Positions 25,400-52,690 of a stretch of 64,000 bases of DNA are shown here, in pieces; the stretch's first letter is position 1; each line of letters opens with the position of its first letter. A program made the translations under genes and the position numbers. The DNA comes from Tubulanus polymorphus (Eukaryota; Animalia; Nemertea): NCBI RefSeq assembly GCF_964204645.1, contig NC_134030.1, positions 16,120,110-16,184,109 of the forward strand. The letters run 5' to 3'. A model generated the notes under the pieces. That model did not search any database. It saw only the letters and a list, made by a program, of their open reading frames with translations, and was not told where the DNA came from.

Positions 25400-25809
25400 A
25401 GTAATAGGGGTTTAGTTGTTCTAAGCCAAAGGTCGAACGGTCGAGCTCATTAAAAAACAAATATTAAAAGTAATTTAAAACTATAATATATTTTCATAGC
25501 CGTGTGCATTTTCTATTATAACTAAATATTTATTCTAAGATATTAATAATTTAAATTTTAAATGCATATTGTATTAAATCAATTGGTCGCTCCGCTTCGC
25601 TACCGCTCCACTCCGCGACCAATGGATTTATTTACAATACACAAATTCATATAATCAAATATATTCAAATAATAATAATTATTCTATTATTCAACTGAAA
25701 TACACACGGCTATGAAAATATATTATAGTTTTAAATTACTTTTAATATTTATTTTTTAATGAGCTCGACCATTCAACCTTTAACCTGAACCAACTAAACC
25801 CCTATTACT
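25400..25809. repeat. 410-bp imperfect terminal palindrome of copy A
   Basis: agtaataggggtttagttg ... caactaaacccctattact; inner hairpin attggtcgc...gcgaccaat. Confidence 0.9.
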
Positions 25810-26016
25810 CTTAAAATATTCATATACATGAATAACATTTAAATTGACAGATTATTCAATATAAAAGTATATATTTACAACATTATTTCAATATTCATAT
25901 TTGTATGAGTTAGATGTTTAAACATTAAAAGTGTTAGTAAAGTGTGATTGAAATAATACATGATATAAATCATTGAACTTCTAAAATCAATTTAGTAAAA
26001 AAAATATGTATAATAA

Positions 26017-26559
26017 ATGGAATCAGAACAACCACAAACTATAAATATTACAAATAACACTGGCGTTATTAATATATACTACAAGAAGTGTTCTAAATGT
26101 GAATTAGATAAATTAGCTTTAACAGAATTTAGTAAGCGTAAGATTAGCAAAGATGGTTTTCAATATTGCTGTAAAACTTGTACTAAACTATATACCAAAC
26201 AATACCGAGAAGATAATAGAGAATCTTATAATGATTATATGACAGAATATATGAGAGAAAAATATCAAACAGATCTTAATTTTAGATTGAAACAATGCTT
26301 AAGATCTAGATTAACACAATTATTCAACAAAGAAACACATTCAGAAACACTATCTAATTTATTAGGTTGTTCAGATGAATTTTTCATTTCATGGATAATA
26401 TATCAATTCGATGATAAAATGAATATAGATAATTATGGTGAATACTTTCATATTGATCATGTGTTGCCGATTTCTAAATTTAACATGAATGATGAATACA
26501 ATAAAAAACTTATTTGGAGTTGGAAAAATTTAAGGCCTTTAGAAAAGAAGGAAAATTAA
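26017..26559 (+). CDS. HNH-type endonuclease with N-terminal Cys4 Zn ribbon (C-terminus probably frameshifted)
   Basis: KKCSKC...YCCKTC; NYGEYFHIDHVLPISKF...WKNLRPLEKKEN. Confidence 0.75.
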   Translation: MESEQPQTINITNNTGVINIYYKKCSKCELDKLALTEFSKRKISKDGFQYCCKTCTKLYTKQYREDNRESYNDYMTEYMREKYQTDLNFRLKQCLRSRLTQLFNKETHSETLSNLLGCSDEFFISWIIYQFDDKMNIDNYGEYFHIDHVLPISKFNMNDEYNKKLIWSWKNLRPLEKKEN

Positions 26560-27870
26560 ATCTAATAAACTAGATATACAGTTATATTTAGATCAACTGG
26601 ATAAAGCAAAGACATTTGTTGAATTATGGAACTCAACGCATAATGAAGAATACGTTGAAGCTTAAGCGCTTAGAAAACCGGTTACTCTCGATCTATGTCA
26701 AACCGCCTATATGCAATTGTATTAGGTTGTTTACAAAAACATCTGTCGCACGTTAATTGTATTAGGTTGTTTACAAAAACATCTGTCGCACGTTATATTC
26801 AGTTGAATAGGGTGTATCTCATTTGAATATTGATCGAATGTGCTATTTCAGTTGAAAAGGATTAATCAATAACATTACAAAGACACATCTGTTGCAGCGA
26901 CAGTGTTTAGCTAGTGAATAACTGGCAGTTATAAACGCGCGGCACATAAGCATAGGAACGCATAGGATATTCTCTCTATAAACACAATTTTAGAAGTTTA
27001 CAGTTATAAATGTAAGTACTGTTTTTGTTGTTATTAAGGCGTTGGGAAACGTTAAACATGTAAAACTTATCCTGGTAAGATGCGCCACGAGTGGCTATGT
27101 AGTGCTGTAATTAATATTTTACAACCACAACTTCAAGTTAGTTTTATTCTACGTTAGATATTTATCTTTTAGATAACAAAATGAAGGCCATTGAATCAAG
27201 AAAGTGAAGATAGATGGATGTGGAATCAGAAATTATGGATATTTCAACTCATGAGACTGTAGCCGTTTAGCCATACTGTATAGGCTTCCAATGCATTACG
27301 TTTGGCGGAATTTCAATTGCGTCATTAAGCTGTTGTTAATGACACACAGTGACAGATGTTGTATTATACTTTATTGATTCCTGCATTCCACGCATACCTT
27401 ACCGCTCGGCTGCCGAGCGGCTTGGAATGTGGAAATCGATAATGATTGTAGAATGAAATATATGTGTTTATGAAATAGTATTTCCACCAGTCGTTTCTTT
27501 GAATTTATTTTCAGTTTTAGGATTTATTATCGAGAATCCGAAATGACTTATCTGGACAGTTATAGTTACTGCTCCTAATAGATAGACAATAGTAGTGAGA
27601 TGGGGCCGTACGGCACCCACATGGTGATATTAAATCCTAATTTAAATAAAAAGTATTTAAAAAACAATAACTTCAACTAACTAGTGAATTCTATTATATT
27701 TTTAATACTTTCTTTTCAAAAGAGAATACTTTATATTTTGAATAGATTCAAATACGAATTCTTTAATTTCAAATAGCTAGTATCAGTAGTCAATACTAGA
27801 ATTCTTTAACTTTAACTATCTAGTATCAGAATACTTATAATATTTTTCTTATTAAATTTCTCTAATATAA

Positions 27871-28472
27871 ATGTCAAAGAAATCGAGTAAGAATAGTATT
27901 GATATTGAAAAACATTAGATGATTTGGGCATAAGTGATAATAAAGATACAGTTGTCTCTAATTCTATTCAAGTTAATAACAATATTGATTATGAATACTA
28001 TTTATATTGTAAGCATCATCTTCAATTATTAATTGCTGGCGGGAAATCTAAGGATTTCTTGGGAAAAATTTTAACTTATCAAGAACTAGATGCTATGAAA
28101 CCCGATAAAGTAATAAAATATTTTAAGATTTATGAAGAGGCAAGATTGGCCCGAATAGATGATTCTATTTCAGATGGTATTGTCAAATGTTATTCTAAGT
28201 TATGTAACCAGTTAATACCAATTGATGATGAAAATAAATTATATAGTGATTTGAAAACTGACTACTTAGTTATGACTGAATTACAAAAATGGGTTGGTTA
28301 TGCTTCATTCCAATTAGGATCGGTTATGACATTAATTTCTACTGGCGTCATAACATTTTCGAATATCAAACCTATGGAATATAAATCAGGTAAGAACGAA
28401 ACAGATGTACTACAACCAAACAGTGAAACAGAAAATGAATCAGAACAAAAATTAACTAAAATAAATGAGTGA
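27871..28472 (+). CDS. Polinton hypothetical protein; true start probably 27871 with an early frameshift
   Basis: TAAATG at 27868-27873; ORF 27924-28472. Confidence 0.6.
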
Positions 28473-28776
28473 TGGCGTTAAGAAAAAGCCTAGATCCGAG
28501 AAACAAATTAAATGGGCAAGAGAATTAGGTAAAAGATCTTCAGAATTCAAAAAAGCTACGAAAAAGAAATTAACTGATATAAATGAATCACCTGATATTG
28601 ATTCAAATAATAATCCATCTAATTCTTCTAATGCTGGAAGTAATTATAAATTATATATTACAATTGGATTAGTAACAGTTATTATATTATCTGGTGTAAT
28701 ATATAAATCAAAATTCAAATCTGATGATAAAGATGATTCCAATGACAATAAACCTATTATACCAGAAAATAAGTAA
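28465..28776 (+). CDS. Small basic single-TM Polinton protein
   Basis: KKPRSEKQIKWARELG; hydrophobic LYITIGLVTVIILSGVIY. Confidence 0.65.
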   Translation: MSDGVKKKPRSEKQIKWARELGKRSSEFKKATKKKLTDINESPDIDSNNNPSNSSNAGSNYKLYITIGLVTVIILSGVIYKSKFKSDDKDDSNDNKPIIPENK

Positions 28777-28830
28777 AATGATAAAGTCATTGAAACTAAA
28801 TCTAAATTATTATTAATGGATTAAAATAAG

Positions 28831-29922
28831 ATGAAAAAAGAACAATATTTAAGAGAGTTATATTATAACCTAGAGAGTGAAGTATCATATTCTAACGTTT
28901 CAGAATTATGGAATAAAATTAAATCTGATGAAGAAAATGGTAATATAAAATATAGTGAACTAACATTATGGTTACAAAATCAACCAACATATCAAATCCA
29001 CAAGAAAATGGATAAAACTTATTTAACAAGAAAAGTTATGGTTTCATACATCGATCAACAATGGCAAGCTGATTTAATTGACATGAAGAACTTAGAAGAA
29101 TACAACAAAGGATATTTCTGGATACTGAATGTTATAGACATATTCAGTAGATACGCATGGTCAATTCCAATCAAAAATAAAACTGGAATAGAAGTTACAA
29201 ATGCTTTTAAATCAATATTTAAAGAAGCTATTCCAGATAAGATACAATTTGATGAAGGTAAGGAATTTTATAACAAACATTTCAAGAAACTATTATCTGA
29301 TAACGATGTAGATTATTTTTCAACACACTCAGATAAAAAAGCATCTATTATAGAAAGATTTAATAAAACATTGAAAACTAGAATGTGGAAATATTTTACT
29401 GCTAATGAAACATATAAATATATCGATGTATTAGATGATTTAGTGAAAGGTTATAATAATTCTAAACATAGTTCTATAAATATGAAACCTATACAAGCTA
29501 GAAAAGAAGATAATTCGGAAATAGTTTGGAATAATTTATATGGCGCATTTGTTACACATGATTTCGGTAAACCTAAATTTAAAATTGGACAACACGTTAG
29601 AATATCTAAATATAGAAAAACCTTTTATAAAGGTTATACCCCTAATTTTACCGAAGAAATATTCAAGATTAAAAAGATAATATTAACTAAACCATTTGTT
29701 TATAAATTAGAAGATCTAAAAGATGAAGAAATATTAGGTTATTTTTATGAACAAGAATTATCACTTGTACCAAACCCAGATGAAATAGAATACAAACTAG
29801 AAAAAGTATTGAAAACAAAAACTCTTAAAGGAAAAAAGTATTCTTTGGTGAAATATAAAGGATATGATGATAAATTTAATGAATGGATTTTATCTAGTAA
29901 AATTAAAAGAATAAATGAATAA
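28831..29922 (+). CDS. Polinton retroviral-like (rve, DDE) integrase with C-terminal chromodomain
   Basis: QWQADLIDM, IDIFSRYAW, QFDEGKEF, SIIERFNKTLK; chromodomain YKLEKVL...LVKYKGYDDKFNEWI; ORF intact. Confidence 0.95.
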   Translation: MKKEQYLRELYYNLESEVSYSNVSELWNKIKSDEENGNIKYSELTLWLQNQPTYQIHKKMDKTYLTRKVMVSYIDQQWQADLIDMKNLEEYNKGYFWILNVIDIFSRYAWSIPIKNKTGIEVTNAFKSIFKEAIPDKIQFDEGKEFYNKHFKKLLSDNDVDYFSTHSDKKASIIERFNKTLKTRMWKYFTANETYKYIDVLDDLVKGYNNSKHSSINMKPIQARKEDNSEIVWNNLYGAFVTHDFGKPKFKIGQHVRISKYRKTFYKGYTPNFTEEIFKIKKIILTKPFVYKLEDLKDEEILGYFYEQELSLVPNPDEIEYKLEKVLKTKTLKGKKYSLVKYKGYDDKFNEWILSSKIKRINE

Positions 29923-30526
29923 AGATTTATTTATATTCGAACCGCATAATATGTTAGTTACTGGAGTAACCAATTGTAGTAAAACACATTTCATATTAGA
30001 TTTGTTAGAAACTATTTATAAGAATCATTTTGATAATATAATATTATTCTGCCCCACTTATGAAATGAATAAAACATATAATAGAGATATAGTTAAGATG
30101 AAAAAGTTTATTATATTAGATCCTAAAATAGTAAAAGAAAATTTAGATAATTGTATAAAAATAGCAATTGATACTTATAAAGGATCAAATACATTATTCA
30201 TTGTAGATGATTGCGCAAATTTACATGATTCAAAAGTGAGAGAAAGTGAGTTATGTTATGTAGCTTTCTCTGGGAGACATTTTGGGATAACAACATGGGT
30301 TTTAAATCAAAAATATAATTCAATTGTTAAAGACTTTAGGGAGAATATAAGATTTCTAGTTTTATTCTACAATAAAGATAAAAAATCTATGCAAAAATCA
30401 TTGGAAGAAAATCAAATTATACCTACTGAGTTACATGATGAATATATGAATAAATTAAAGAATAATAAAGGTTCAAAATTATTACTGAGACTACAATTTC
30501 CATATGAATATAAATTTATAAAATAA
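29915..30526 (+). CDS. Genome-packaging ATPase (A32/FtsK-HerA-like)
   Basis: Walker-A-like VTGVTNCSKT, Walker B LFIVDD, SGRHFGITTWVLNQKY, FRENI. Confidence 0.88.
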   Translation: MNKDLFIFEPHNMLVTGVTNCSKTHFILDLLETIYKNHFDNIILFCPTYEMNKTYNRDIVKMKKFIILDPKIVKENLDNCIKIAIDTYKGSNTLFIVDDCANLHDSKVRESELCYVAFSGRHFGITTWVLNQKYNSIVKDFRENIRFLVLFYNKDKKSMQKSLEENQIIPTELHDEYMNKLKNNKGSKLLLRLQFPYEYKFIK

Positions 30527-30554
30527 CTATTTATAATTTGGAATATTATAGAAA

Positions 30555-30788
30555 CTAAATTATATATCTATGTACTAGACGTACGAGTAAGAAAGTAAGA
30601 TTCTTACCAAGAAAGTAAGATTCTTAGATTCTTACGTACGTCTAGTATATAGATATATAAATTATTAAATGAATTATATAAAAATGAATAAATTATATGT
30701 TTTCTCTTAATAATAATAAAAATAGATTATATTATAACTATTTCTATACTTATATTAATAAGTTTATGTTTTTAATTTTTATGAAAAC

Positions 30789-30866
<78 letters not shown>

Positions 30867-30945
30867 CTAGATGTACGAGTAAGAAAGTAAGATTTCTTGG
30901 ATTCTTGGATTCTTACTCGTACGTCTAGTATATAGTTATATAAAT
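30555..30945. terminator. Paired hairpins flanking a (TA)n tract between convergent gene blocks; putative 3'-end signals
   Basis: actagacgtacgagtaagaa...ttcttacgtacgtctagt at ~30574-30646 and again at ~30866-30929. Confidence 0.45.
30792..30864. repeat. (TA)n microsatellite
   Basis: Uninterrupted TA run of about 70 bp. Confidence 0.95.
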
Positions 30946-32219: not shown

Positions 32220-33467
32220 TTAATACATAACACTATTCAATTGAGAATTTACAATATTTAATTGCGCGTCAGATATAATATAAATGTGCATTTTGAAATT
32301 TTTGATTCCTTTATTCTTTGTCATGAATAAGTGTATTCCATCTTTAGTGTTTTGTAATTTTTTTCCAGAACCATGTAATGAATTATCCTCTGTTGTTCTA
32401 AAATCTAACCATAATGCGTATTTATTACCGGTATAATAATCAATTTGATTAATATTACAATTTTCAGATGATTTCACTTTTTTATTCATAAAATGTTTTC
32501 TAATTTCTGGCCATTGATCAATCATTCTCATTCCTTGACAAAATATTTTATTTGCTATTCCTTCGATAGTTATTTCTACTTTTGTTATTTCAGGATTATA
32601 ATAATTATCAACATTTATTGCGCCATTAGTATATGTTTTAATGGTAGAAAATATTAATATACCTTTAATAGATCTTCTTGGGAAGTTAATATTCTCATTA
32701 ATAATTTCATCATTTGCATAAATAGTTACAGTTTTAAATTTATCAATATAATCATATAATAATGAAAATCCTTGATTGTATTTAGTTTGAATTATACTTG
32801 AAATATTTTCATCAGTTACTGTATCATATTCTAAACATATATTCGATAATTTATAACCCATATCTTTATTAACGCTAGATATTACAATTTTATTAACAGG
32901 AGCAAATGTTATTTCGAATATAACATCTTCTTGAATTGCGTATTTATATAAAGGTGCATTGTTATTTATCAATTCAAAGTCTAATGGAATTTTATATTTG
33001 CTTCCATATATACTTTTTATCAATTTATCTACAGCATTAGTTAATATTGCATTACGTGCTTCTGATCTTAATTTATTTTGGTTTTCTGATTGGATGCCTT
33101 GAAATATCATATTATTTCTATTTTCTTTAGTTAACCATAAATCTTTATAATGCATAAATAAATTATAATCATCTAATGAGAAAACTGTTTCTGGACCAAT
33201 CTTTATAGTTAATTTTTTAATCAAATATCTTCCAACATTATCAACAACATAATTATTATTATTACCGATTACTTTTATATCGGCTGATAAATAAATACTA
33301 TTTGGAACATAAAAAGTATTTTGTATTAATCTAGGAATTCTAACATATAAAGTTTCATCGGGATTAATATTTGAAGGATTATGTGTAATTATATGATGTG
33401 ATCTTTCTGCTTTAATAGCATTAGATATTCTATGATTCTTAGAAGGATTGATATAACTCCCACTCAT
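32220..33467 (-). CDS. Putative major capsid protein (double jelly-roll), copy A
   Basis: 415-aa beta-rich intact ORF; most conserved large gene between copies; size and position fit a Polinton MCP; fold is inferred. Confidence 0.7.
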   Translation of the reverse strand: MSGSYINPSKNHRISNAIKAERSHHIITHNPSNINPDETLYVRIPRLIQNTFYVPNSIYLSADIKVIGNNNNYVVDNVGRYLIKKLTIKIGPETVFSLDDYNLFMHYKDLWLTKENRNNMIFQGIQSENQNKLRSEARNAILTNAVDKLIKSIYGSKYKIPLDFELINNNAPLYKYAIQEDVIFEITFAPVNKIVISSVNKDMGYKLSNICLEYDTVTDENISSIIQTKYNQGFSLLYDYIDKFKTVTIYANDEIINENINFPRRSIKGILIFSTIKTYTNGAINVDNYYNPEITKVEITIEGIANKIFCQGMRMIDQWPEIRKHFMNKKVKSSENCNINQIDYYTGNKYALWLDFRTTEDNSLHGSGKKLQNTKDGIHLFMTKNKGIKNFKMHIYIISDAQLNIVNSQLNSVMY

Positions 33468-33487
33468 TTATTTAACAAAAAAATTAA

Positions 33488-34956
33488 TTATTTATTTTTA
33501 ATCATGTTTACTAGCCCAAAAATAATTGCACTTACAACTGTAATTAAAAATAAAATAATATGTTCAGCAGCAAAGTTAATAATGTTTCCTGCAGATTTCA
33601 ATATAAAACCAACAATTGATGCAATAATTCCTGGCAATGCTGCAGCAGATTTCTTTGATAGTTCCCATAAATATTTTGCTAATTTCTTTAAACCATCCTT
33701 AACTTTATCTTGTATAGGATTATTATCATTCGGGGGTTTATCCGGTTTATTGGGAGTAGGAGTAGATTTTAAAGCATTTGATATAGCTAAACCAATTGTT
33801 GTAAATAACATAGTTACAGCTGTTAGAATTGAAAGAATTGTTATTCCTTCTAATTTAAATAATAATTTTATTCTATCTTTCAATGATATTTCAGAATTTG
33901 GTTTAATCAACAAATCTTTAAAAATAACTTTTAATCTATTAATATTAAAATCATATGATTTTAATAATAATTTAATTTCTTCTTTCTGTACTTCTAAATT
34001 ATCTTTTAAATTATTAATTTCTTTTTCTAATCGTAATTCTTTTTGCCTATATTCTATTTCATCAATTACTTGATGATCTAAATCAGACTTTAATTGTTCT
34101 ATTTCTTTATTTTTATCAGTAAATTCTTTTTCTAAAGTTCTAATTTTAAAATCTCTTATACTTTTATCATGCGCAATTTTATCAGATGCATGTCTAATAC
34201 TTTCAATTTCTCTAATTGCTTCAACAGAAAATATATTATTTAAGTCTTCTAATGTTTGATCTGTTGCATCAAGTAATCCATTCGGTAAAAGTTTTTCAAT
34301 TGGAACTTCATTTGATTTAAGTTTACTAGTTTTGGAAGTTTTATTCTGTTCAGAAATTGTTTCTGTTTCTAAATTATTTTTGATTGTTTCAAATAATTCA
34401 TTAATTCTTTGTTTAAATACTCTTTTATTTTGATCTATTTCTTCTTGTGTTACATCTTCTATTTCATTACTATTTCTTATTCTCTTAATTCTAGATAGTA
34501 ATGAGTCAGTCTTAAGCAAAGTTAATTTTGCTATTATTTTTCTTCTTTTTTATTAGAGATATTAATATAATAATCCGAATCATCTTTCAAACTATAATAA
34601 TATTAACCATCTAAAAACTTTAATTCTTTTACTAAAAGTCTGGCGCCTCTATCATTTATATTATATCCAGAATCTTTAAATTCATGTTGAAAATTATACA
34701 TAAATTCATAATTTTCTATATGTTTTCTTTCTAAACCTGGGTCAAAATTTTCAATAGGTATTCTCGATCCAGTTCTTCTATCATGTTCATCTGTTGATGG
34801 GGCTTTAGAACCACTATCTGCTAAATTAGAATTATATGCTGATTCATTACCATCATCAATATTATTATCAGCAGTGATATAATCATCATTGTTAGTATTG
34901 GCATTATCATTATTTCCCCTGTTTTCCATTTCATAATCTTCTCCACCTTCTGCCAT
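33488..34956 (-). pseudogene. Acidic N-terminus, coiled-coil, C-terminal multi-TM protein; one gene broken near 34603
   Basis: Copy A reads FLDG-stop where copy B reads ILDGEYYY; TM segments ITILSILTAVTMLFTTIGLAI and LPGIIASIVGFIL...IILFLITVVSAIIFGL. Confidence 0.7.
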
Positions 34957-34978
34957 TTACATAATAAAAAAATTAAAA

Positions 34979-35317: not shown

Positions 35318-35640
35318 TAATAAGAAATGTTGTAAATGGCGTCCGGCTGTTAAGATGTGTTGGTACAGTGGAGATTTAAAGTTTCATTTCGATGTCCTTC
35401 CACACTTGCTTGATTTATTAGATCTACTCAATCTATGCAGTGCTGTTCTTCTGAATGAGACAACGAAGTGTACAAACAAATAAGGTAACTTTTTACTGGT
35501 ATTTAGTGGTTCTATAGTATTAATCTATAGATATCGTCGATAGTCTGTCCTTAAGTCGTTCACACCGTAGTTGCCAAACGTTACCATAGAGACGTTGTGT
35601 ACCTGTCAAAAAGTCACGGTCGACTGGAGATAATCTAAGT

Positions 35641-36602
35641 ATGGGTAGACCGAAGAAAGATCGCTCGACGAAAACCTGCCACCGCTACCGCAGATAACAA
35701 AGGCACAACGCCGAGTAACAATAACGTTGAACCCGCGTCAAATACTCAAAGCGCTCCGAAACAACAAACTCTGATCACGCCAGTCACTAGTACCCCGACT
35801 GCAGCCTCAGACCCCGAATCGAGGAAAAGATTCCCCTCTGAAGAATTCTCACCTCGTGAAGGTATAAAAAAACCCAATATTCCTCCAAACGTGAATCAAC
35901 AGGCAACGAGGCCACATAATGAAAATTTCCCCGTAGACGAAATTGCGAGCACCGTCTCGAACCTGCTAAATAACGAGGAATCAACCGCGGGTCTAGTGAA
36001 CCGAATCGTGTCGGCCATAAAGTTCACATTTCAAAATCAACTGGAACATCTGGTAAAAAACGATCGATGATCAAAACGAAGTCATAGCTGATCTTAGTGC
36101 GAAACTGGATCACCAGGAACAATATTCCAGGCGAAACAATATCATTGTAAACGGTATAAAAGAAAATTCTTCCGAAAACACGGACCAAATAATTCTAGAT
36201 CTCGCACGTAAGATCATGCCTGATGACGCTCCCGCGATGGAACTCCGAGATATCGATCGATCTCATCGCCTCGGGCCCAAAAGAGATGGAACAAACCGCC
36301 CGATTATCTGTAAATTCGTCACTCACCGAGCGCGGCAATACGTGTTGGTTAATCGTAAAAAGCTCCCTAAAGATGTTTACGCTAATGAAGACCTGACGAA
36401 AAGACACCAGGCGATTCTGTACGAAGTCCGAAAATTATGGAAATCTAAGCGTATTTACGGTTTTTACGTTCGCGATGGTAAAATACTCGTCATTAAAACC
36501 GAGCGCGAGAAAGCGATTGAAATCAGCGACCATTCATCAATATCGGCTCTCAACGAGGAATCAACCCCATCAGCGAACCCGAACGACACCACATACTACT
36601 AA
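35641..36602 (+). pseudogene. LINE ORF1 (coiled-coil and RRM-like), frameshifted; start approximate
   Basis: EQYSRRNNIIVNGIKE upstream of IDRSHRLG...RPIICKF...YANEDLTK. Confidence 0.75.
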
Positions 36603-37779
36603 TCCGATCCCGTCAACAATTGCGTTGCATTCGTGTTTTGTTCATATCTGAAATCCGTACACTTCTATGTTCGACCCCGTTAGCGAACTCGAACGACTCC
36701 GCGTACTAGTGTTCCGATCCGTTCATTATATACTTACATCACATTGTGTTCCGTCCATCGTGATATCCGTACCATACCCTTCTACCTACAAACCTAACCT
36801 ATTCTACGATCCGTTGCGAAATTAGACCCTTTAAGGGACTAAATGTTGCATTGTGCATTACTTTCCGTTTCCGTTTAAATTACGCACCTTCCTTTCAACG
36901 ACTCGACAGAATAATTCATACCGTTTCGATGGGCACTAAAAATCGCTCCATGGTCCGCACTGCGTTAATTGTCTCGGCGATCCTTAACGTTCGATATGAA
37001 CGAAATCCGAGACTAAGGAAAGTCTCTAACAAAACCTCTTTTAGTATATATTTGTGGTGTACAAATTCTGTTGACTTAACTGTATTTCACTTCGTTTATT
37101 GTTGAATTTGATAATATGATACTAGATGTAAATTCAAAAGGTGTTACATTTCTTTTTAAATCATGCATTTATTCGAACTCTCAATTCAATTCTGTGTCTG
37201 GACTCGAGATTGTACCTCCTTTAAACCTCTTCCTTATTATCAATGAGTTATAATAGGGAACTTTATTTTCTCTACTCATCGACTCGTTTGTTGGTTACTA
37301 TCCGAGCGAATCGGAATATAAAACTACTTGTTATCCTTCCTTGAATACGTAGACATTTGGTGTATAGTGATATGTAACACGTCTGCCCGTTCTATTTTTT
37401 ATTTTTTTTTCTTTGTTGACTCGAATCACATTGTGGCTGTAAAAGAACAAATTGTAGAAAACCATACCCTAAGCGCTACATAGAACACACAATACCCCTT
37501 CCCATAACCTATCATTAGTACATTTTGATTAATTTTCGATAATATAACTCCAGTGCGATATCCCCAAGTTATCATCACTATTACTCTGCATATGCGATTA
37601 ATACTGTGTACATGTCTAAAGGACAAACATTTTTTGTTGTTGTTGTTTCCAATTTTTCTACTGTGTAACCATCTACCCGCATTTCGCCTGTAAATTATGT
37701 TTCATGATGATATATTTTTGGATAGTGAGAAGGATCCCCCGACACTACTTATTATTCCATTGACTCGCTAAACGCTCTT

Positions 37780-40623
37780 GTGAACACCAACGACCAACAG
37801 AGTGGATTATTTCTATACCACACCAATGTTAGAAGCATGAACAAAAACTTTGAAAATTTAAGAGATACAATAACTAGTATAAACTTTTCACCCACAGTCA
37901 TTGGGATATCCGAAACGTGGGCGCTAGACGATCACGATAATGACGTATTATACAAACTAGACGGGTACAATAGCTTTTTCTTAAATCGTCATTTTAACCA
38001 TGCAGGCGGTGTGGCTATATACATCGATGACCATTACCATTGTAAAGTACGTAACGACCTGGGTATAGAAAGTAACACTTTTGAATTGTTATTTTGTGAA
38101 TTGTCGATTTCACGTAATGAACAAATATTAGTCGGTGTCTTATATCGACAAGGAGGTCAACCAATTGATCAGTTTACCAATGAACTTAATTCAACATTAG
38201 CTAAATTGCCTAAAAATAACGTCTTCATTATGGGCGACATCAATATAGATCTCATCAAAGCATCCACGCACAACAAGACCCACGACTTCTTAAATAACAT
38301 GGTTTCGCATTCATTACAACCTCTTATTTTAAAACCAACAAGAGTCACCGAAACGTCAGCAACCTGTATTGACCACATATATACCAATGTTGACAACCAA
38401 CGATCCGGCATATTGACTACTGATATTTCAGACCATTATTCTACCTTTGTTATTTACCCGCGTGCTCGACGGCTTAAAAATGCACCGTACATTATCCATT
38501 TTAGACCTATCAATGAACTCAATATTTCGGATTTTAAAGCGCGCTTGGCCAACGAAGACTGGAGTGACATATACACAACCAATGATCCCAACGTAGCATA
38601 CAATCTCTTTTTCACGAGATACAAGATGCTCTACGACTTAAGTTTTCCTATTCTAACTAAAAATGTAACTCGTCCTTCGTGTAAACCCTGGCTGTCCGAG
38701 GGCTTACTAAATTCTGTCAAAACCAAATTGAAATATTACCGAATATACAAACGAACTAAGCGCGCTGATCATCACGAACGTTACAAGAAATATCGCAACA
38801 GGTTGAATCGATTGCTTAAAGCTGCGCAGAAACAGCACTTCGCACGAGCATTAATTGCTGCGAAACATGACCTGAAAAAAACTTGGTCGATTCTAAACCA
38901 AGTTATCGGTAGCCCTAAAGATATGCCCACCATTTAGAGACATAAATGGTGTAGACCTTGACCCTTTAGATGTAGCCAATAAATTCAATTCTTTCTTTAC
39001 TAACGTTGGTAGAAACTTAGCGGACAAAATTCCAACAACCGAAATCTCTCCCCTATCATACCTCCAACCCGATTCTTCAAATAACCTGTTCCTAAACCCA
39101 ATTATTCAGCAGGACATTTTATATATTGTCAGTAATTTTGATGCTAATAAAGGTGCTGGGCCTGATGATATAAAACCTAAAATTGCTAAGTCTGCCATCT
39201 CTGAAATAATGGAACCATTACTATACATCTTCAATAAGTCATATTCAACGGGGATAGTTCCCGACGCTCTTAAAATCGCCAAAGTTACCCCAATTCATAA
39301 AGGCGGTGATAAAAATGAAATCACTAACTACAGACCTATATCAGTCCTTTCGTTCTTTTCTAAAATCCTAGAAAAAATTACCTACGCCCGTATAATATCC
39401 TTTGTTGATAATCATCATATCCTTAACCCTCATCAATATGGCTTTAGGAAAAATTCATCTACGGAACTTGCACTGCTTGACTTTACAGATCATATCTCAA
39501 AACAGGTTGAAAAGGGCCAATTCTCAATAAGTATTTTCATTGATTTATCGAAAGCTTTCGATACAATCGACCACTCAATTTTGATCCAAAACTACACAGA
39601 TTAGGCATAAGAGGCTTACCGAATGATTGGATTAAAAGTTATTTATCAAATCGTAAACAATATGTAGGCTACAACAAATCTCCTTCCAGTTATCAGCCCA
39701 TCTCGCACGGTGTCCCACAAGGTTCTATTCTTGGACCATTACTTTTTCTTTTGTGTGTAAATGACATAATACATGTTTGTAAGTTATTCAAGTTTATACT
39801 GTTTGCTGACGACACGACCATTTCTTGTAGCAACAAAGATCCTATAGAATTAATTCGTGCCGTAAACCGCGAACTGATAAAACTATCTACGTGGTTTAGA
39901 GCAAACAAACTCTCGTTGAATGTAAAGAAAACAAGCTACATGAAGTTTGGAAATTTTAGATTACCAGACAATACAGAAATCAGAATAGACAATCAACCTG
40001 TTGCTCATTCGTGCACCAACAAATTTCTTGGTGTGATTTTTGATGAAAACCTAAACTGGTCAGCACATACTGCCTATACATCTGCCAAAGTTTCACGTGC
40101 TATTGGTTTATTGTTCAAAGCCCACAAATGTCTACCCCAGCCCATTTTGCCCACACTTTATAATTCCTTAGTTTTACCATATTTCCAATACTGCAACATT
40201 GTCTGGGGACGTACATATCCAATCCGTCTGTATCATCTTAGCATCCTACAGAAACGGGCTTTACGACTTGTATATAATGTACCTTACCTAGCACACTCGA
40301 GTCCACTCTTTAAACTAGGCAATCACCTTAAATTAACTGACATTAATAAGCTCCAAACAGCAAGCTTCATTTTCAAGCTGACGTGCAACAAGGTACCTAA
40401 TACCCTACGACATATTCTTTCATATAGGTCTGGTCAGCAACATCATATTCTACGAAATGCCAATAATTTAAATATACCGCAACATCGCACTACTAAACGC
40501 TCGTTCTCTATTAGTATAGCAGGCCCAAAGTTTTGGAATTCTTTACCAATCAACATCCGAAATAGTTCATCTCTTTATAGTTTCAAGCACAATCTCAAGA
40601 AGCAACTCATGTCAACCTATTAA
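37780..40623 (+). pseudogene. LINE ORF2: APE endonuclease and reverse transcriptase, with frameshifts
   Basis: HTNVRS, ISETW, MGDINID, CIDHIY, ISDHY; NYRPISVL, QYGFR, FIDLSKAFDTIDH, GVPQGSILGPLLF, LFADDT. Confidence 0.93.
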
Positions 40624-41042
40624 TCAACATCTAAAATCTTGAGCAAACCAAAATACTATAAATGTGTAGAAATTTATTTTATTTTATCTTTTTAGGGATT
40701 ATATCTCATTCGTCGAAATGGGAGGACTTTTCTATTCTTCTTAAATTATCCCGTTAATTAATCAATAACAGTCTACCATCAATTAATCCCATGGCTAGTT
40801 TATGCTATAACGTAGAATTTTGCATCCTTCTCATTATCCAAATAGCATCATTCCATAATTCTCAATGTTCCTTCTTTTCATAATTGCATTTTTTTTGTTA
40901 TTTGCTCCAGGGCCTCGGCTTGACAATCACTTAATGATTTCCGAGGTGATGATTGTCATGTATTATACATAAACATTTTGTAACAATTATGTATTTATAT
41001 TTGTATCGTGATAATCATCAAATAAATCAAATCAAAATAATA

Positions 41043-42018: not shown

Positions 42019-42034
42019 TTATATAATTAAAAAA

Positions 42035-42469: not shown

Positions 42470-42547
42470 TTATTTAGCAAAAAAATTACTTATTAGTAAA
42501 TCTATACGCTACAAATATAACAATAACAGTTCCACCTAAAATCCAAA

Positions 42548-43155: not shown

Positions 43156-43171
43156 TTATTTATCAAAAAAA

Positions 43172-43497: not shown

Positions 43498-43514
43498 TTA
43501 TATAGTGAAAAAAA

Positions 43515-44276: not shown

Positions 44277-44289
44277 TTATTTTACATAT

Positions 44290-44622
44290 TTTATTCGAAA
44301 TCTATTTCATGATGCCCTTTTTCATTCTTACCTTTGTATACGAAAAAGAAATCTCCAGAACATAATTCTTCTAGATCTTCACTTGATAATCTATGAAATC
44401 TATCTGGTAAATATGTTCTGAATTTATGTGTATTTCCTTTTAATCCTTCATATTCTAAGTGTATAACTAATTTATCTCCATATTTGTTAGTTACTGTATC
44501 AATATTTGTAATTAGATATTTTTTATGGATTATTAATTCTTTTAACTTCTTAAATTTATAATCTACTGATTTGACATTTGAAGTATCTTTTATTCTATCT
44601 AGAAATGATTTGTTGTTCTCAC
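44290..44622 (-). pseudogene. 5'-truncated homolog of the 57026 gene
   Basis: Nucleotide similarity to the reverse complement of 57048-57379. Confidence 0.75.
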
Positions 44623-46575: not shown

Positions 46576-48695
46576 ACTGTGATTACTTACCGTATCTAAT
46601 GTTGATGTTACTGCAGTCAATTCAAATGTTAAACAATTTTCTCTATTTTCAGAATAATCATTACAGGTAAAGCGTTGTGAAGTACGCTTAGCCGTCTTCC
46701 GAATTTGTAAAAGATTACAGGTAAAGCGTTATGAGGTACGCCTAACCTTCCGAAATCTTAGGTAGGCGTTAACAAGCCTAGTTACATTTTTCATCAGAAA
46801 CTCGGGGTACACTGAAAATAACCACCCAGATAATTCTGGACTTGCCAGGACGGAATTTGGTAGAACTGTATTTCAAACGTATTTCATTATTTTCTGATAT
46901 AATTCTAATTGAAGGTTATAACAAATCAATACGCAAATATATAAAAATAATATAATATATGTAAATACGTCATCATGTTACACCCCAACATTTTTTTAGT
47001 TGAGCTTACAGTTTTGAGTTAGTGTAATAAGCTTTGAATTAATGTTCTAAAATTCTGTCCTGGCATTATTTAGGTCTGGCATTTTCATGGCTGTTATTTT
47101 CTAGCGACCTGCACTAGATTTCATGCACTGTTGTACTTCATATTTTCTCAATATTATACATATTTCTTTCTGAATACTGTTTTCTTTGGTTAGGTGAAGT
47201 TAAAAGTTATATTCATTTTTTATTATTTTACTTCACTGGTGATGGATATGTATTGGTGGCCCTTTTTGGTTTTTCTGTAAAATCCTTTCATTAATAGGGC
47301 TGAGTACTGCTAGGCCCTATATCTCAAGTTAGAAGGCCATAAGCGAGTCTGGCAGTTCTAAAGTTTCTTCTAATAAAGTTTTTTTTAAGATCTCTACATT
47401 TCGTATTTGTTGATTTACGATGGAATAGTTGACCTGAACACCGATGAAATACAAGTATTTACAAACAAAGAATTAAAATTAGTTTTGTTATTGTAGTGAG
47501 GAGAATATTCGGTATATTCTATTTATTGGACGATATGTCTACATTTCATTCTCAATCACGATGTCCCTAAAAATGAAATTGAGTCCATGGCGATCGTCGA
47601 AAATCAACACCCCTGGACACCAATTGTTTTGGTATAACCTTCAAAAATCAGTTCGTCGAATACCGGTACCTACCATAACTCTAAGTGACGATTTACCCTG
47701 ATCATAAATTTTATTCTAAAGATCATGAAAATTTAGATCGTCAATAACGCTTAACTTTTAAATGGCCTTCTTCGTGAAACTGAATGATAAAGATATTTTG
47801 TATTGTACAGTAGCTCTGTCCAAAACGGTAACAGTCTATTCGGTAATCCGTTCAAATTGGCAGAATGATAAAAAATATTTTCTGTCCACTGTTTGTTACC
47901 GTGTCTGTCGTATGTAATCGTGTTATTACTCGGAAGCAATAAATCTGTATTGAATTGTCTACACCGGTAACATGTGTATGCTACTGTACTTGAAAGGGAT
48001 ATACCGATGTATTATGAAAATAATCTAGGCTTTTTATTCTTCTTCTTGATCTCACACGAACTGCCGTTTACCGCTGACCATTAGACCCGATGCGCTATAT
48101 ACTCCGCAATCTCGAGTATCCGGTATCCGGTATTTAGGTGTCCGGTATCCGGTATCCGTGATATTCGAACAGCCATGAGAAACCGCATATACATAGTACA
48201 TATTCACGATTGATAGAACACTAAATCCGTGTTGACGCGATGTAGAGAGAATCCCACAATTATAACGAAAAAGTCCGAGAATGAAAATTCGAGATAGAAG
48301 TTTATTTCAACGTCTCGACTATATCCTAATAGTCATCTTCAGGAATAATGAGAAACTACAAAAATTATGAGATATATATACAATCCAGAGACAAAGAGAC
48401 TAATTCAAGTAATCAGAGATGATACAAACTAAAGGGAAATTAACGTAGAAACAGTTACACGCTAAAATAGATTAAAGGGAAGCAAACTAAGGGGTAATTA
48501 TAAACAACAAAAGTGGGTATAAATATAAATTAGAACTTGAAATCAGTAGTAAAAAGACAAACTAGGGGCACTTAAATTAAAACAATGGTGAATACAAGTT
48601 GAAAGACTAAAATAGATGAGAGAACAAATAACAAATAATCAAAGGGGAATCAAGTGTTGAGTTTAACCAGTTTACAGAGGAATTCAGATATAAGT

Positions 48696-49678: not shown

Positions 49679-49809
49679 AGCGATACCGAATGTCTGTTCG
49701 TAAAAACAATTGTTGAATTAAAAAAGGAGACCGTCGTACAAATATATTACTTGAATTAGTCTCTTTGTCTCTGGATTGTATATATATCTCATAATTTTTG
49801 TAGTTTCTC

Positions 49810-49855
49810 ATTATTCCTGAAGATGACTATTAGGATATGGTCGAAACGTTGAAAT
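49810..49855 (+). ncRNA. Hammerhead-ribozyme-like core in the pLTR
   Basis: CTGAAGA - stem II (gactat...atggtc) - GAAAC; second copy on the minus strand at ~48305-48345 has GAGAC. Confidence 0.6.
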
Positions 49856-50019
49856 AAACTACTATCTCGAAGTTTCATTTTCGGACTTTTTCGTTATAAT
49901 TGTGGGATTCTCTCTACATAGTACAAACTATCACCGCTAGTTAGCGTCATTCGTAATTAGTCATAAACTTTCAAATTCAGGTAGTTCAAAACGTAAACCA
50001 GACCTTCATTCAGCACGGC

Positions 50020-50401
50020 AGAGGACTGGACCGAAGATCTAGAAACGAAATTGGTAGAATTATGGTGTGAGCGGCCATCTTTATAGATGTCGCTGGCACG
50101 TTGTATTCAAAACAGAATCAGAAAAATCAAAGTCTAAATTTCTAATAGAAATATATTTCCTAATAATTCAAATTTATTCTCAAAATGCTTATCACGTGAC
50201 CATTTGAGCCGTTGCAGTTGCTAGTAATCGCAACCGACATAAGCAGGGAAGCAACTGGGAGGATCTCATATCCCGCTAGTCGGCCTCAGTTGCTGCGAAT
50301 CGGAGCGCAGTCGACATAAGCTGGGCTGCGATCGCGGTTGCTCTCAGTTGCGTCGGTAGGAGTCGGTAGGCGTCGCGTTGCTTGTCGACATAAGCCAGCC
50401 T
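50020..50401 (+). mobile_element. PIF/Harbinger-like remnant: MADF fragment and right terminus
   Basis: WTEDLETKLVELWCERPSL (MADF-like) at ~50027; three cgacataagc subterminal repeats ending cagcct followed by tta. Confidence 0.5.
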
Positions 50402-50598
50402 TTACGTGTAGAAAGTTTCCAGGAAATCCTACCGTTTGCCAGATCCCCTACCACTGCCATCTTCCAGGGCCGACTCTATTATCACGTCCGGATTGATATC
50501 CGGATAATCCGGAGATTCCGGTGAAATAGAGTGAAATTGGACAATTCAATTCAATTCACTTCTTTAAAAGATGGCGGACGAATTGGCTCTCGCCTGTT

Positions 50599-51510
50599 AG
50601 TAATAGGGGTAATGGGCTTTCAAGCCAATGGTCGAGAGGTCGAGAAATTTTCCAAATGTGAAAATAACAATAATTTCTACTTGAATTAGTCGCGTACACT
50701 CCTAATTCAAGTAGAAATTATTATTATTTTCACATTTGTAAAATTTCTCAACCTCTCAGCCTTTAACCTGAAAGCCCATTACCCCTATTACTCTTAAAAT
50801 ATTCATTTACATGGATAAAATATATTTGAATAACATATAAATTGATAGAATATTCAATATAAAAGTGTGAGTAAAGTGTTAGTAAAAAAGTAACGAGTAA
50901 TTAACGAGCTCTTATAGAATAGATAGATAATAGACATTATTTCAATATTTATATTTGTATGAGTTAGATTTTTAAACATTAAAAGTGTAAGTAAAGTGTG
51001 ATTGAAATAATTCATATTTAAAACATTGAATATTTATATTTGAATGAGTTTAAATAAAATTTTTGTTATCAAAATGATGAAAGAAGAAGAACCCAACTTT
51101 AAAATCGAAATCAATGAAACCAATAAATCATTTTCACAGTTTAACATTAAAAATTATATTTCAGCAACAAATTTAGTGTCCGCAAGGTATTATAAAATTG
51201 AAAATATTACTGTAATTAATCAAATATTATCAAATGAAACATATTTAATTACTGAACTAGTAGATACTTTTGATAATGGCGTTAAAAATCCTAAAATGTT
51301 CAATACAGTTTTTAATTTTAAAGGAACTTCAGATGAAAAAATAATTAATATTCTTAAAACTCCATTTAATGAAAGAAATGATGATTTAATACTTTCTAAA
51401 GATTATAATGATTTGATTAACTTAAGAATTGAAAAAAGACAATTATATTATTTCAATTTTGATAATAAACAAATTATCTATAATGAAAATTCATCAAATA
51501 TTGGAATTCA
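50599..51510 (+). mobile_element. Isolated Polinton terminus (copy C) with the first gene fragment
   Basis: 194-bp palindrome 50599-50792 and subterminal sequence shared with copies A and B; AT-rich ORF from 51044. Confidence 0.8.
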
Positions 51511-51715
51511 ATGTGTCAACGACAGTAGAATATTAAAGAACAGCGATCTCTGTGACAGCACCCATACACTATTCAGTGAGAATGAGCATCTGTTAGGTGA
51601 TGGAGGGTATCCGTGCCGTAAGTGGTTGGTCACACCATATCGAAATGATGGACAGTAAACTCGTGAACAACGTAGATTTAATTATTTACTTTCAAGCAAT
51701 CGGTCGATTATGAAA
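51511..51715 (+). pseudogene. Harbinger (HARBI1-like) DDE transposase fragment
   Basis: VNDSRILKNS...HLLGDGGYPCRKWLVTPY then REQRRFNYLLSSNR. Confidence 0.75.
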
Positions 51716-52421
51716 GAGGGTAAATGATTTTTTGCATCCTGTTGAATAAATATATGGAATGGCCACGGTTCAGACTCCTAAACTGATATTATTGACTAGT
51801 CATATGATCAAGGGGTAGATGAATACCATATTTCAGAGATGGCCAAATACCAAGTGCATGTACAGTAGACTCTGCTTACTTTTTGATCATCCAGGACCAA
51901 TGAATTTTATTAGAGGCAAATAAATTCTGAACAAAGGATGCGATAGCAGGATGCGATAAAAGCGATATCCGCGCCTACTGTAAATGCACTTATAGACGAA
52001 TGATAAATGGATGATTAGGCTACCAGTGATAAATCCATCCTAGCCATAAAGCAAACGAATTATGCAACATCGTTTCAATGCTGGCACAGGTAACTAAAAC
52101 TAACAACCTATATGTAGAAAATGAATATTTTATTAGATTCAGCGCAGCTGAATCTATTAGTTTACTAAATGGTGCCGACTGATTAGTGTTGCACAACTTC
52201 TCCACTTAATCTGTAGCACCTGACGCTATGAGTGTTATGTCAACAGGATTGTTACAGTTGTAGGGTCATAATTTCTGGTGGTATGGATATCTGGTGTATC
52301 TAATTTGGGCCCTGGGGGCTAATTTCCATACGATTTTGGGCACTTCTGAAGTCACATGTGACGTCATTTTCGCGTGGAGGCGAACCGCAGCACACCCATC
52401 TGAATGACATTTATACATGTA

Positions 52422-52690
52422 AGTAATAGGGATAATGGGCTTTCATACCAAAGGTCGAAAGGTCGAGCTCGTAAAAAAATAATAACAATTTCTATTTGAA
52501 TTAGTCGCGAAACTCATAAAGAATGAAAAATAATTCTCACACGCTCGAATTTATTTTCATTTCATTCGAATTCATTTTTTATGAGTTTCACTCCTAATTC
52601 AAATAGAAATTATTATTATTTTCATATTTTTCATTTTTTACTCACTCGCCCTTTCAACCTTTGATATGAAAGCCCATTATCCCTATAACT
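52422..52690. repeat. 269-bp imperfect terminal palindrome of copy B
   Basis: agtaatagggataatgggctttcat ... atgaaagcccattatccctataact. Confidence 0.9.

Follow-up and report, generated by a model that had tools for sequence, protein, structure and literature searches.

Palindromic Polinton ends in Tubulanus polymorphus with a 3'-ended strand predicted to fold back

The window analyzed here is a 64,000-nucleotide stretch of Tubulanus polymorphus contig NC_134030.1 that contains three fully read termini of one Polinton family, designated A, B, and C. Of these, A belongs to the integrase side and C to the polymerase (pPolB) side of an element, and B is truncated; element C lies inverted relative to element A. 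The gene set of the family comprises pPolB, an rve integrase, a packaging ATPase, two HNH-type nucleases, and capsid candidates. No Rep/HUH-type nickase was present among the 20 ORFs scanned, and no poxvirus-type resolvase was found. The features are as follows (plus and minus denote the strand).

25400..25809, no strand: terminal palindrome A, with a near-perfect outer stem of 107 columns followed by a sparsely paired central part, then a short inner stem and a loop that is C-rich on the plus strand
25810..26016, plus: subterminal part of the terminal inverted repeat at end A, conserved in A, B, and C; contains TATAAAAG, a putative inward-facing promoter
26017..26559, plus: stand-alone HNH / endonuclease VII-like ORF of 180 aa, the first gene within end A (phrog_1035, E 1.4e-14; HIDH...N...N motif in the translation)
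28831..29922, plus: rve integrase of element A with a weak chromodomain match (PF00665, 37.7 bits, cut-off 32.6)
29915..30526, plus: A32-like packaging ATPase of element A (PF04665, 39.9 bits, cut-off 22.8)
32220..33467, minus: major capsid protein candidate of element A (928 homologues; the C counterpart matches Capsid_N weakly)
35323..41037, plus: LINE-like insertion of about 5.7 kb in A relative to C, with an endonuclease-reverse-transcriptase ORF inside
50599..50792, no strand: terminal palindrome B, 194 bp, with gap-free arms
50793..51517, plus: subterminal and internal part of fragment B; read depth is at repeat level to 51517 and single-copy beyond
52422..52690, no strand: terminal palindrome C, 269 bp, with a B-type stem and an additional central palindromic segment
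52691..52928, plus: subterminal part of the terminal inverted repeat at end C
54117..54917, plus: C2H2-like zinc finger and Endonuclease_7 (HNH) frame, just before and overlapping the polymerase frames (PF02945, 24.1 bits, cut-off 23.6; phrog_423, E 2.5e-5)
54835..56198, plus: protein-primed family B DNA polymerase in three stop- or frame-separated pieces (PF03175, profile positions 10-123, 143-285, and 335-385 at 19.8, 25.8, and 21.2 bits; cut-off 25.8)
62456..63655, plus: major capsid protein candidate of element C

The preliminary description of this DNA had placed three palindromes with a common start sequence at Polinton termini, with a bubble shared by B and C and with loops that differ while symmetry is retained. 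Alignment of the arms and matching of the tip sequence bear out each of these points. The palindromes (410 bp in A) begin at base 1 of their Polinton ends, and the tip sequence AGTAATAGGG is found exactly at 25400, 50599, and 52422 on the plus strand and at 25809 and 50792 on the minus strand; the minus-strand copy at 52690 has one mismatch. Arm-to-arm alignment yields 163 matches, 35 mismatches, and 14 gap columns in A, 85, 12, and 0 in B, and 104, 21, and 19 in C. The bubble common to B and C reads GTCGCG/GGAGTG, and the interior of A differs from that of B and C in both arms. GGTCGA motifs number 2, 2, and 2 in the outer arms of A, B, and C and 1, 0, and 0 in the inner arms; the inner-arm motif is broken in B and C by different substitutions, with the outer-arm pair intact. 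The same conserved 190-250 bp follows the palindrome in all three copies. Element tips read 5'-AG...CT-3'. Known protein-primed genomes use a short terminal reiteration for sliding-back, and no obvious reiteration of this kind is seen at the element tip.

The abundance and boundaries of the termini were probed using raw reads of the same species from an independent run. Read depth at the termini is about 90-230 times that of single-copy DNA, with palindrome depths of 531-1392 versus about 6 in adjacent single-copy bins. The flanking sequences of the reads become unrelated precisely at 50599 and 52422, with 507 reads diverging before the former (agreement 0.36) and 1147 before the latter (agreement 0.33). 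The depth of the B palindrome (545-742) equals that of its subterminal DNA (546-589), and in C the outermost stem is deeper than the subterminal DNA. No place where molecules start or stop is listed in the raw reads of this one run, and of the 15 joints listed (of 270) none is strand-changing; no fold-back molecules were seen in the reads.

The mismatches between arms are strongly biased by strand. A G-containing pair (G.T, G.A, or G.G) falls on the minus strand at 53 of 68 mismatches, where the plus strand has C.A, C.T, or C.C; the reverse holds at 6, and 9 are neutral. The commonest class is the one singled out in the preliminary description, C in the outer arm against A in the inner arm (T in its reverse complement), which accounts for 10/35 mismatches in A, 6/12 in B, and 7/21 in C, and the bias is stronger than first described. 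The favored minus strand is the strand with its 3' end at the element tip, and this is true at both the integrase end and the polymerase end, with 3/3 termini in the same mismatch orientation. Over the first 107 columns of A, the minus strand forms 98 Watson-Crick, 7 G.T, 1 G.A, and 1 C.A pairs. The non-Watson-Crick pairs of this strand are 7 G.T and 3 G.A versus 1 A.A and 1 C.A in the B stem, and 6 G.T and 5 G.A versus 1 T.T and 1 C.A in the C stem. The minus strand folds better than the plus strand in each copy, by 10.5 (A), 8.8 (B), and 11.1 (C) kcal/mol. Folded as DNA against 200 shuffles, C gives z = -20.1 for the minus strand and -18.4 for the plus strand, and 0 shuffles fold as well. 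Random swapping of the orientation of mismatched pairs reaches the observed bias in 0/60 (A), 2/150 (B), and 3/80 (C) trials, tests that are not independent because the copies have mismatches in common.

The bias resides in the mismatches that are inherited by the family. All 8 mismatches common to at least two copies obey the strand rule (six transitions and the tandem G.A bubble; p = 0.004). Among the five private mismatches, at which nearly all other-copy reads carry the pairing letter at the partner place, one obeys the rule, two are the reverse, and two are neutral; pairing-letter reads per direction are 540/550, 101/110, 236/242, 246/270, and 378/395 at 50629, 50739, 50759, 52521, and 52687, respectively. 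These five mismatches are private decay. Family-level mismatches, provisionally taken as those without a majority alternative among the 40 listed of 256 'other letter' rows in the reads, include nine C-to-T and no G-to-A changes in inner arms, against 35 C and 58 G present in the outer arms (p = 1.5e-4; p = 0.0075 when restricted to five shared sites). Only one outer-arm G-to-A change was seen. On the 3'-ended strand, nearly all pairs left by family-inherited mismatches are G.T or G.A. Symmetric mismatches confined to CpG are not what is found: of the nine C/T sites at family level, just 4 have a CpG context, so that CpG deamination does not fit, and the CpG observed/expected ratio of 0.92-1.05 in the surrounding host-like DNA gives no sign of heavy CpG methylation. 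Furthermore, a difference between two copies often has its mirror image in the other arm (7 such two-arm differences for A versus B, 8 for A versus C, and 3+3 for B versus C). Since the three termini share ancestry, independent events are few, 8 to about 14. Results from these comparisons support a strand-specific constraint on the palindromes.

As the mismatches nearly all spare the minus strand, this strand likely folds into a hairpin during copying of the element. The reading that fits best, to which we assign a probability of roughly 0.4, is that these are palindromic ends whose 3'-tipped strand is predicted to fold back when single-stranded in replication, likely giving the polymerase a double-stranded start. 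During end replication, the 3'-ended single strand would fold onto itself, and we infer that the folded end serves the element's polymerase in this way. The fold-back may replace, on displaced strands, the long-range panhandle of adenovirus-type replicons and would restore a duplex terminus for protein-primed initiation. The outer arm is proposed to be kept by sequence-specific recognition, as suggested by the two GGTCGA motifs in every copy, and the sole constraint on the inner arm may be that it must pair with the outer one in the 3'-ended strand. An inner arm constrained by pairing only would drift toward A+T through changes that retain a G-containing pair. Pairing alone predicts outer-arm G-to-A changes to be at least as frequent as inner-arm C-to-T changes; with one seen, the model needs a sequence-constrained outer arm as an extra assumption. 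The fixed orientation of the termini speaks against symmetric flip-flop hairpin transfer. Selection for a single-strand hairpin, as put forward in the preliminary description, is supported in part, by the strand-specific constraint and the mirrored arm differences, but it finds no counterpart in the reads as free ends or fold-back molecules.

It is conceivable, although doubtful, that the 3' fold-back itself primes a strand-displacing polymerase (rolling-hairpin replication), with one-sided resolution by an element-encoded HNH nuclease that nicks only the arm keeping GGTCGA. A nick made solely in this arm would propagate a single orientation; one-sided resolution that propagates a single orientation is found at the left end of minute virus of mice. 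A palindrome that begins at the first base, so that the 3' end is paired from the tip onward, a bias specific to the 3'-ended strand, the GGTCGA asymmetry, and the positions of the HNH domains (adjoining end A and directly preceding the polymerase in C) are all consistent with this mechanism. Hairpin priming has also been proposed for the terminal palindromes of endogenous virophages and Polinton-like viruses (10.64898/2026.07.28.741278). However, these palindromes are tied mainly to elements without pPolB (10.64898/2026.07.28.741278), the present polymerase matches the protein-primed family PF03175, the scanned ORFs offer no Rep/HUH nickase, the joints listed do not change strand, and HNH-pPolB fusions are known in nematode and oomycete Polintons unconnected to hairpins (PMC10748475). 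A neutral origin is rather unlikely. Here, an old inverted duplication of the tip would have been kept near-symmetric by gene conversion between arms or by loss of central DNA from a longer palindrome, with the bias arising from strand-specific mutation of the inner arm. The resemblance of C to B with an extra central segment suits this origin, as a central deletion or insertion can yield unlike loops with symmetry retained, and so do the small number of independent events and the CpG context of some C/T sites. Yet symmetric decay expects inner-arm G-to-A changes to exceed C-to-T changes, the opposite of 0 versus 9, and uniform minus-strand deamination expects many outer-arm changes. Strand displacement initiated at the end would presumably expose the 5'-ended strand first to deamination, giving the opposite bias. 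Conversion that mirrored columns 11-19, 26, and 38 should also have wiped the mismatches between them at columns 25, 27, 28, and 35, and both the CpG ratio of the surrounding DNA and the lack of bias in private, post-insertion mismatches argue against neutrality.

It is unlikely that the palindromes act as a duplex-DNA signal in place of a hairpin, with the arms kept unlike so that integrase, packaging, or end-binding proteins use only the outer tip and pass over its inner copy, the G.T/G.A pattern being a side effect of which substitutions destroy a binding motif. The intact GGTCGA pairs of the outer arms and the differently broken inner arms of B and C would be expected of such a duplex signal, and the hairpin mismatches of vaccinia virus affect packaging, through a telomere-binding protein, but not DNA synthesis (PMC8956199); left unexplained are the mirrored differences between copies and the sites outside the motif that also obey the rule (25458, 25507, and the AATAAC/AATAAT site common to B and C). 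An RNA hairpin is quite improbable. A strand bias that leaves only wobble pairs is classically a sign of transcription, and an outward transcript through each end would carry the minus-strand sequence, in which G.U and tandem G.A are well tolerated, and might act as a small-RNA precursor, but the palindromes have no Rfam family match, and the genes adjoining both ends read inward from a TATA-like motif inside the inner edge of the palindrome, so that the palindrome is not expected in those mRNAs. It is highly improbable that the palindromes are independent foldback/MITE elements that merely adjoin Polinton ends. The tip sequence does occur at both ends of each palindrome, as in a miniature element, and the greater depth of the outermost C stem points the same way; however, the same conserved subterminal DNA lies next to all three, B has equal depth in palindrome and subterminal DNA, no target-site duplication surrounds a palindrome alone, and the inner edges at 50792 and 52690 have, among the rows listed, no large pile of divergent reads, unlike the outer edges.

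The terminal inverted repeats of Polinton/Maverick elements are said to have been described by Kapitonov and Jurka in 2006 and by Pritham et al. in 2007. The present elements resemble these in their pPolB, rve integrase, A32-like ATPase, and capsid genes, in long repeats at integrase and polymerase ends, and in the 5'-AG...CT-3' tips. Polinton/Maverick repeats of 100-1,500 bp are known (PMC10748475); unlike the repeats described, the outermost 194-410 bp of each repeat here are palindromic from the first base, and neither 'hairpin' nor 'palindrom' was found in the accessible text of PMC10748475 and PMC8502044. Terminal palindromes in related elements have already been reported, as endogenous virophages and Polinton-like viruses of Halocafeteria seosinensis carry palindromes of about 52 nt (10.64898/2026.07.28.741278, a 2026 preprint). 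As here, the palindrome occupies the repeat extremity and adjoins the target-site duplication; the hairpin was proposed to act in replication. In contrast to those mainly pPolB-lacking elements, the palindromes of this family are 194-410 bp and the family encodes pPolB; the accessible part of the preprint does not describe the mismatch strand bias that is present here.

The likeness to parvovirus hairpins and poxvirus flip-flop telomeres drawn in the preliminary description holds for the imperfect terminal palindromes, and mismatches matter functionally in those systems (for vaccinia virus, PMC8956199). It does not extend to flip-flop, to a Rep-type nickase or poxvirus-type resolvase, or to the protein-primed polymerase and rve-mediated integration of this family. 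In adenovirus-type panhandles, a duplex origin is rebuilt on the displaced strand of a protein-primed linear genome, as is proposed here, but the panhandle pairs two distant terminal repeats (PMC4046053) and each end of these elements could self-pair locally. Given the single orientation, the lack of a Rep-type nickase among the 20 ORFs, and the protein-primed polymerase, the closest documented analogue is the 3'-strand hairpin of Streptomyces telomeres. [quoted passage not shown] Both are protein-primed replicons, and in Streptomyces only the 3'-ended strand folds, into hairpins stabilized by G:A pairs, as is predicted here. The Streptomyces telomeres differ in having several short packed palindromes rather than one long palindrome and, as bacterial systems, in their Tap and Tpg proteins and internal replication start (PMC4513846); the likeness is one of mechanism and not of homology.

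The DNA from 25400 to 64000 consists of portions of three copies of a single Polinton/Maverick family set in eukaryotic DNA, and no copy is complete with both ends inside the window, as would be required to see the 5-8 bp target-site duplication typical of the family. The three termini, and the elements or fragment behind them, are called A, B and C (terminal palindromes at 25400-25809, 50599-50792 and 52422-52690, respectively). The features referred to below are:

25400 to ~44622: element A, with an HNH-type ORF, retrovirus-like (rve) integrase, A32-like ATPase, capsid-protein candidate and LINE-like insertion
26017-26559, plus strand: stand-alone HNH/endonuclease VII-like ORF directly inside end A
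~35323-41037: LINE-like retrotransposon of 5.7 kb nested in A and absent from C, with an endonuclease-reverse-transcriptase ORF at 37837-38937
50599 to ~51517: fragment B, a short terminal fragment; read depth is single-copy from 51518
52422 to past the window edge: element C, with a zinc-finger ORF, an Endonuclease_7/HNH frame, a broken protein-primed family B DNA polymerase (pPolB) and then a capsid candidate
54117-54917, plus strand: second HNH/endonuclease VII-like frame, immediately upstream of and overlapping the polymerase frames of C
32220-35322 = 63704-60638: A/C matching block, inverted
41038-44622 = 60642-57048: A/C matching block, inverted

The rve integrase (28831-29922; PF00665, 37.7 bits, cut-off 32.6) and the A32/FtsK-like packaging ATPase (PF04665, 39.9 bits, cut-off 22.8) score above their thresholds. 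The candidate for the double jelly-roll major capsid protein matches Capsid_N below threshold (16.4 bits against 24), and none of its 928 homologues is named. Many of these homologues lie on short metagenome contigs at 50-76% identity (P0003-P0122, L001-L040), and one cluster is source-labelled as a partial Bartonella protein, probably reflecting host DNA in a bacterial assembly. The pPolB gene is broken in copy C, where three pieces separated by stops or frame changes match PF03175 in profile order with 19.8, 25.8 and 21.2 bits (cut-off 25.8); no polymerase remnant was found in element A. No family match to an adenain-like maturation protease was obtained among 20 ORFs of at least 120 aa (E up to 0.01). 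In PDB sequence searches, both HNH-type frames returned no nuclease, only zinc-finger and chance matches. The HNH frame and polymerase frames of C resemble the HNH-pPolB2 fusion of nematode and oomycete Polintons, as described in the available part of the nematode study (PMC10748475).

The interiors of A and C are ~90% identical and inverted relative to each other, so the end of A is the integrase end and the end of C is the polymerase end. Fragment B was considered as the right end of A and rejected: its subterminal sequence would then be on the wrong side, and A lacks a polymerase remnant and ends at ~44622. Several other repeats are present in the window. Two A+T-rich palindromic stretches (30556-30664 and 30788-30870) lie in A, in the gap separating the ATPase gene from the following ORF. 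Between A and B, two inverted repeats of 174 bp (48240-48413 and 49746-49919) are 97% identical and ~1.3 kb apart, and may represent the ends of another small transposon. Further upstream, a 59-bp satellite array on the plus strand (~563-3800) has at least 50 units with ~92-96% identity, and an inverted 1.6-kb copy of it is found at 13477-15113, ~10 kb from the main array. The ORF at 51044-51658 is chimeric; its first part is repeated Polinton-fragment DNA and its DDE_Tnp_4 (Harbinger-like) match falls in the single-copy DNA after 51517.

Each of the three palindromes occupies the position assigned to it in the preliminary description and has AGTAATAGGG as its opening sequence, starting from the element's first base. 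Aligning the outer arm (the half starting at the element tip) with the inner arm gives 163 matches, 35 mismatches and 14 gap columns in A, 85, 12 and 0 in B, and 104, 21 and 19 in C; C is the weakest palindrome, yet its folding z-score is ~ -20 relative to shuffled sequences. The element tips are AG...CT, a defining trait of Polinton/Maverick elements. Next to the palindrome in A, B and C alike is a conserved stretch of 190-250 bp that contains TATAAAAG, indicating that the terminal inverted repeat is composed of the palindrome plus this subterminal part; integrase end A and polymerase end C have the palindrome plus ~200 bp in common. All three palindromes have GTCGCG and CACTCC motifs (the latter reading GGAGTG on the minus strand) close to their centres, at 25586-25623, 50688-50703 and 52503-52595, within interiors that otherwise differ; these motifs could form a recognition site at the hairpin tip. 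No Rfam family was found within 25000-53200. The possibility that the palindromes are independent MITEs is contradicted by the common subterminal DNA behind all three and by the lack of any duplication flanking the palindrome alone. The equal read depth of the palindrome and subterminal DNA of B also counts against it.

Copy number and the origin of individual mismatches were assessed by aligning raw reads of an independent run with the same species label, together with contigs of two other runs, to 50300-52880 (B and C). The termini are highly repeated, with a summed depth of 531-1392 over the palindromes and ~6 in the single-copy bins at 51518-52126. Precisely ahead of 50599 (507 reads, agreement 0.36) and of 52422 (1147 reads, agreement 0.33), the reads split into unrelated flanking sequence. 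A separate ~40 bp at 50362-50402, with a summed depth of ~2600 and sharp read divergence on both sides, is a short repeat of very high copy number. At five sites (50629, 50739, 50759, 52521 and 52687) nearly all reads from other copies carry the letter that pairs with the opposite arm, indicating that these mismatches are private decay of the window copies. In reads over the B/C region, where the copies seen are all integrated, no pile-up of molecule ends was found, neither free nor folded ends were in evidence, and none of the 15 joints listed changes strand. Any likeness to poxvirus-type telomeres, which have covalently closed ends and concatemer junctions, was judged on these integrated copies.

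The preliminary description had claimed that most arm differences give G.T pairs on one strand only. The strand bias is borne out and is wider than C opposite A: the minus strand forms stems with G.T and G.A pairs, while the same sites give C.A and C.T on the plus strand. When each mismatch was classed by the pair that results on either strand, the three termini provided 68 cells, with the G-containing pair on the minus strand in 53, on the plus strand in 6 and neutral in 9. The bubble common to B and C follows the same pattern, being a tandem G.A/A.G between flanking G.C pairs on the minus strand and T.C/C.T on the plus strand; in both copies the tandem G.A adjoins the predicted hairpin tip. 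In DNA, G-containing mismatches are the most stable and C-containing mismatches the least, as is known from nearest-neighbour studies. Folding of both strands favours the minus strand by 10.5 (A), 8.8 (B) and 11.1 kcal/mol (C). When the orientation of the mismatched pairs was swapped at random, the observed bias was reached in 0 of 60 (A), 2 of 150 (B) and 3 of 80 trials (C), three tests that are not independent because mismatches are common to the copies. Only three termini, of common ancestry, were covered in full.

The reads allow private decay to be separated from family-level mismatches, a distinction that draws on 40 of 256 variant rows, in which the absence of a row does not prove identity. 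The five private mismatches comprise one that obeys the strand rule, two that reverse it and two neutral ones. The other stem mismatches obey the rule; they number 10 transitions (nine with C in the outer and T in the inner arm, one with A in the outer and G in the inner arm) and about four transversions. Mismatches found in at least two copies (six transitions and two bubble transversions) obey the rule in 8 of 8 cases (p = 0.004).

Simple mutational explanations do not account for this pattern. Deamination at CpG would leave mismatches symmetric between the arms and confined to CpG; the mismatches are instead strand-biased, only 4 of the 9 C/T sites involve CpG, and those four all show a single outcome out of four possible ones. 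CpG is also not depleted in the surrounding host-like DNA (observed/expected 0.92-1.05). Symmetric decay of the inner arm is at odds with the base composition, as there are 35 C and 58 G in the outer arms, whereas nine C-to-T changes and not one G-to-A change are seen in the inner arm (p = 1.5e-4; p = 0.0075 for the five shared changes alone). Deamination of a displaced strand would be expected to give the opposite bias, since strand displacement initiated at the end should expose the 5'-ended strand first. Where two copies differ, the difference is frequently mirrored in both arms: the A/B comparison has 7 mirrored columns among 14 that differ, A/C has 8 among 16, and B/C has 3 among 10 in the outer stem and 3 among 11 in the interior. 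Columns 25, 27, 28 and 35, which sit between mirrored columns, hold conserved mismatches that long conversion tracts would have wiped out, which points to pairing-dependent selection rather than simple homogenisation. The arms also differ in GGTCGA motifs, of which there are two per outer arm in all three copies and one, none and none in the inner arms of A, B and C; B and C have lost the second inner-arm motif through different substitutions.

With left-end geometry, the minus strand is the strand with its 3' end at the element tip. As integrase end A and polymerase end C are arranged alike, the favoured strand is the 3'-ended one at both element ends. The earlier suggestion of selection for a hairpin on one displaced strand is thus upheld as regards a mismatch bias that spares the 3'-ended strand at both ends, while the hairpin and its role are inferred. 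The outer arm may be read sequence-specifically, and pairing with it on the single-stranded 3'-ended strand may be all that the inner arm has to do. Displaced strands would regain a duplex terminus through such a fold-back, at which the element's protein-primed polymerase could initiate. The fuller proposal, that the ends are replicated via a 3'-terminal fold-back primed or resolved by the element's own HNH-polymerase fusion as a hybrid of protein-primed and hairpin replication, is given a probability of roughly 0.2. It is similarly doubtful that the fold-back primes itself, with one-sided nicking by the element's HNH nucleases, a route that the present data do not separate from protein-primed fold-back. 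Palindrome orientation is identical in all three window termini, although reads inside the palindrome cannot distinguish flip from flop; this single orientation argues against symmetric flip-flop transfer, not against one-sided resolution. If fold-back by an HNH-polymerase is correct, the restriction to G.T and G.A pairs would be the first sequence evidence of a single-stranded Polinton intermediate in which only the 3'-ended strand needs to fold, and the hitherto unexplained HNH domain of pPolB2-type polymerases would gain a function.

To our knowledge, copying of linear Polinton/Maverick DNA has never been demonstrated experimentally, and current replication models are taken from adenovirus, with a panhandle between two terminal repeats. 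No strand-biased mismatches were found in the literature on Polinton hairpins, palindromes or panhandles, and the words 'hairpin' and 'palindrom' are absent from the available portions of the adintovirus (PMC8502044) and nematode (PMC10748475) papers. The strand rule and the assignment to the 3'-ended strand appear to be new. Relatives of the termini were also sought in sequence collections. Exact terminus patterns gave no matches in viral_contigs or metagenome_contigs and five in genome_contigs, all of them 19-26 nt long, from bacterial or archaeal contigs and due to chance. The capsid protein has no relative in viral_contigs; an alignment search recovered 40 metagenome loci (identity up to 76%), and no terminus or terminal palindrome was found in these, the contigs being too short.

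In the accessible part of a 2026 preprint (10.64898/2026.07.28.741278), palindromes of 52 nt are reported at the inverted-repeat extremities of Polinton-like viruses and endogenous virophages; most of the elements that have them lack pPolB, and hairpin priming is proposed. A palindromic terminus in itself is therefore a variation on a structure that is now being described. Unlike the Halocafeteria-type palindromes, which that part of the preprint ties to replication genes other than pPolB, the Tubulanus family carries pPolB. The termini also differ from parvovirus rolling-hairpin ends, as no Rep/NS1 HUH nickase was found among the 20 ORFs scanned against Pfam and HNH-type nucleases are present instead. 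A closer likeness is to Streptomyces telomeres, where, from the portion of the source at hand, a protein-capped replicon has a 3' overhang that folds into hairpins with closing G:A pairs, and the folded single strand supports protein priming whereas duplex DNA does not (PMC4513846). The G.T and G.A pairs predicted here likewise fall on the 3'-ended strand; the resemblance is one of predicted structure, and homology is not claimed. A palindromic terminus with inherited mismatches that spare only the 3'-ended strand makes a testable prediction, as it specifies the folding strand, the end concerned and the bases that should tolerate change. It also connects the Polintons of animals and protists with virophages and Polinton-like viruses, through their terminal palindromes, and with the protein-capped telomeres of bacteria, which suggests that protein-primed replicons may repeatedly have solved the end-replication problem with hairpins on the 3'-ended strand.
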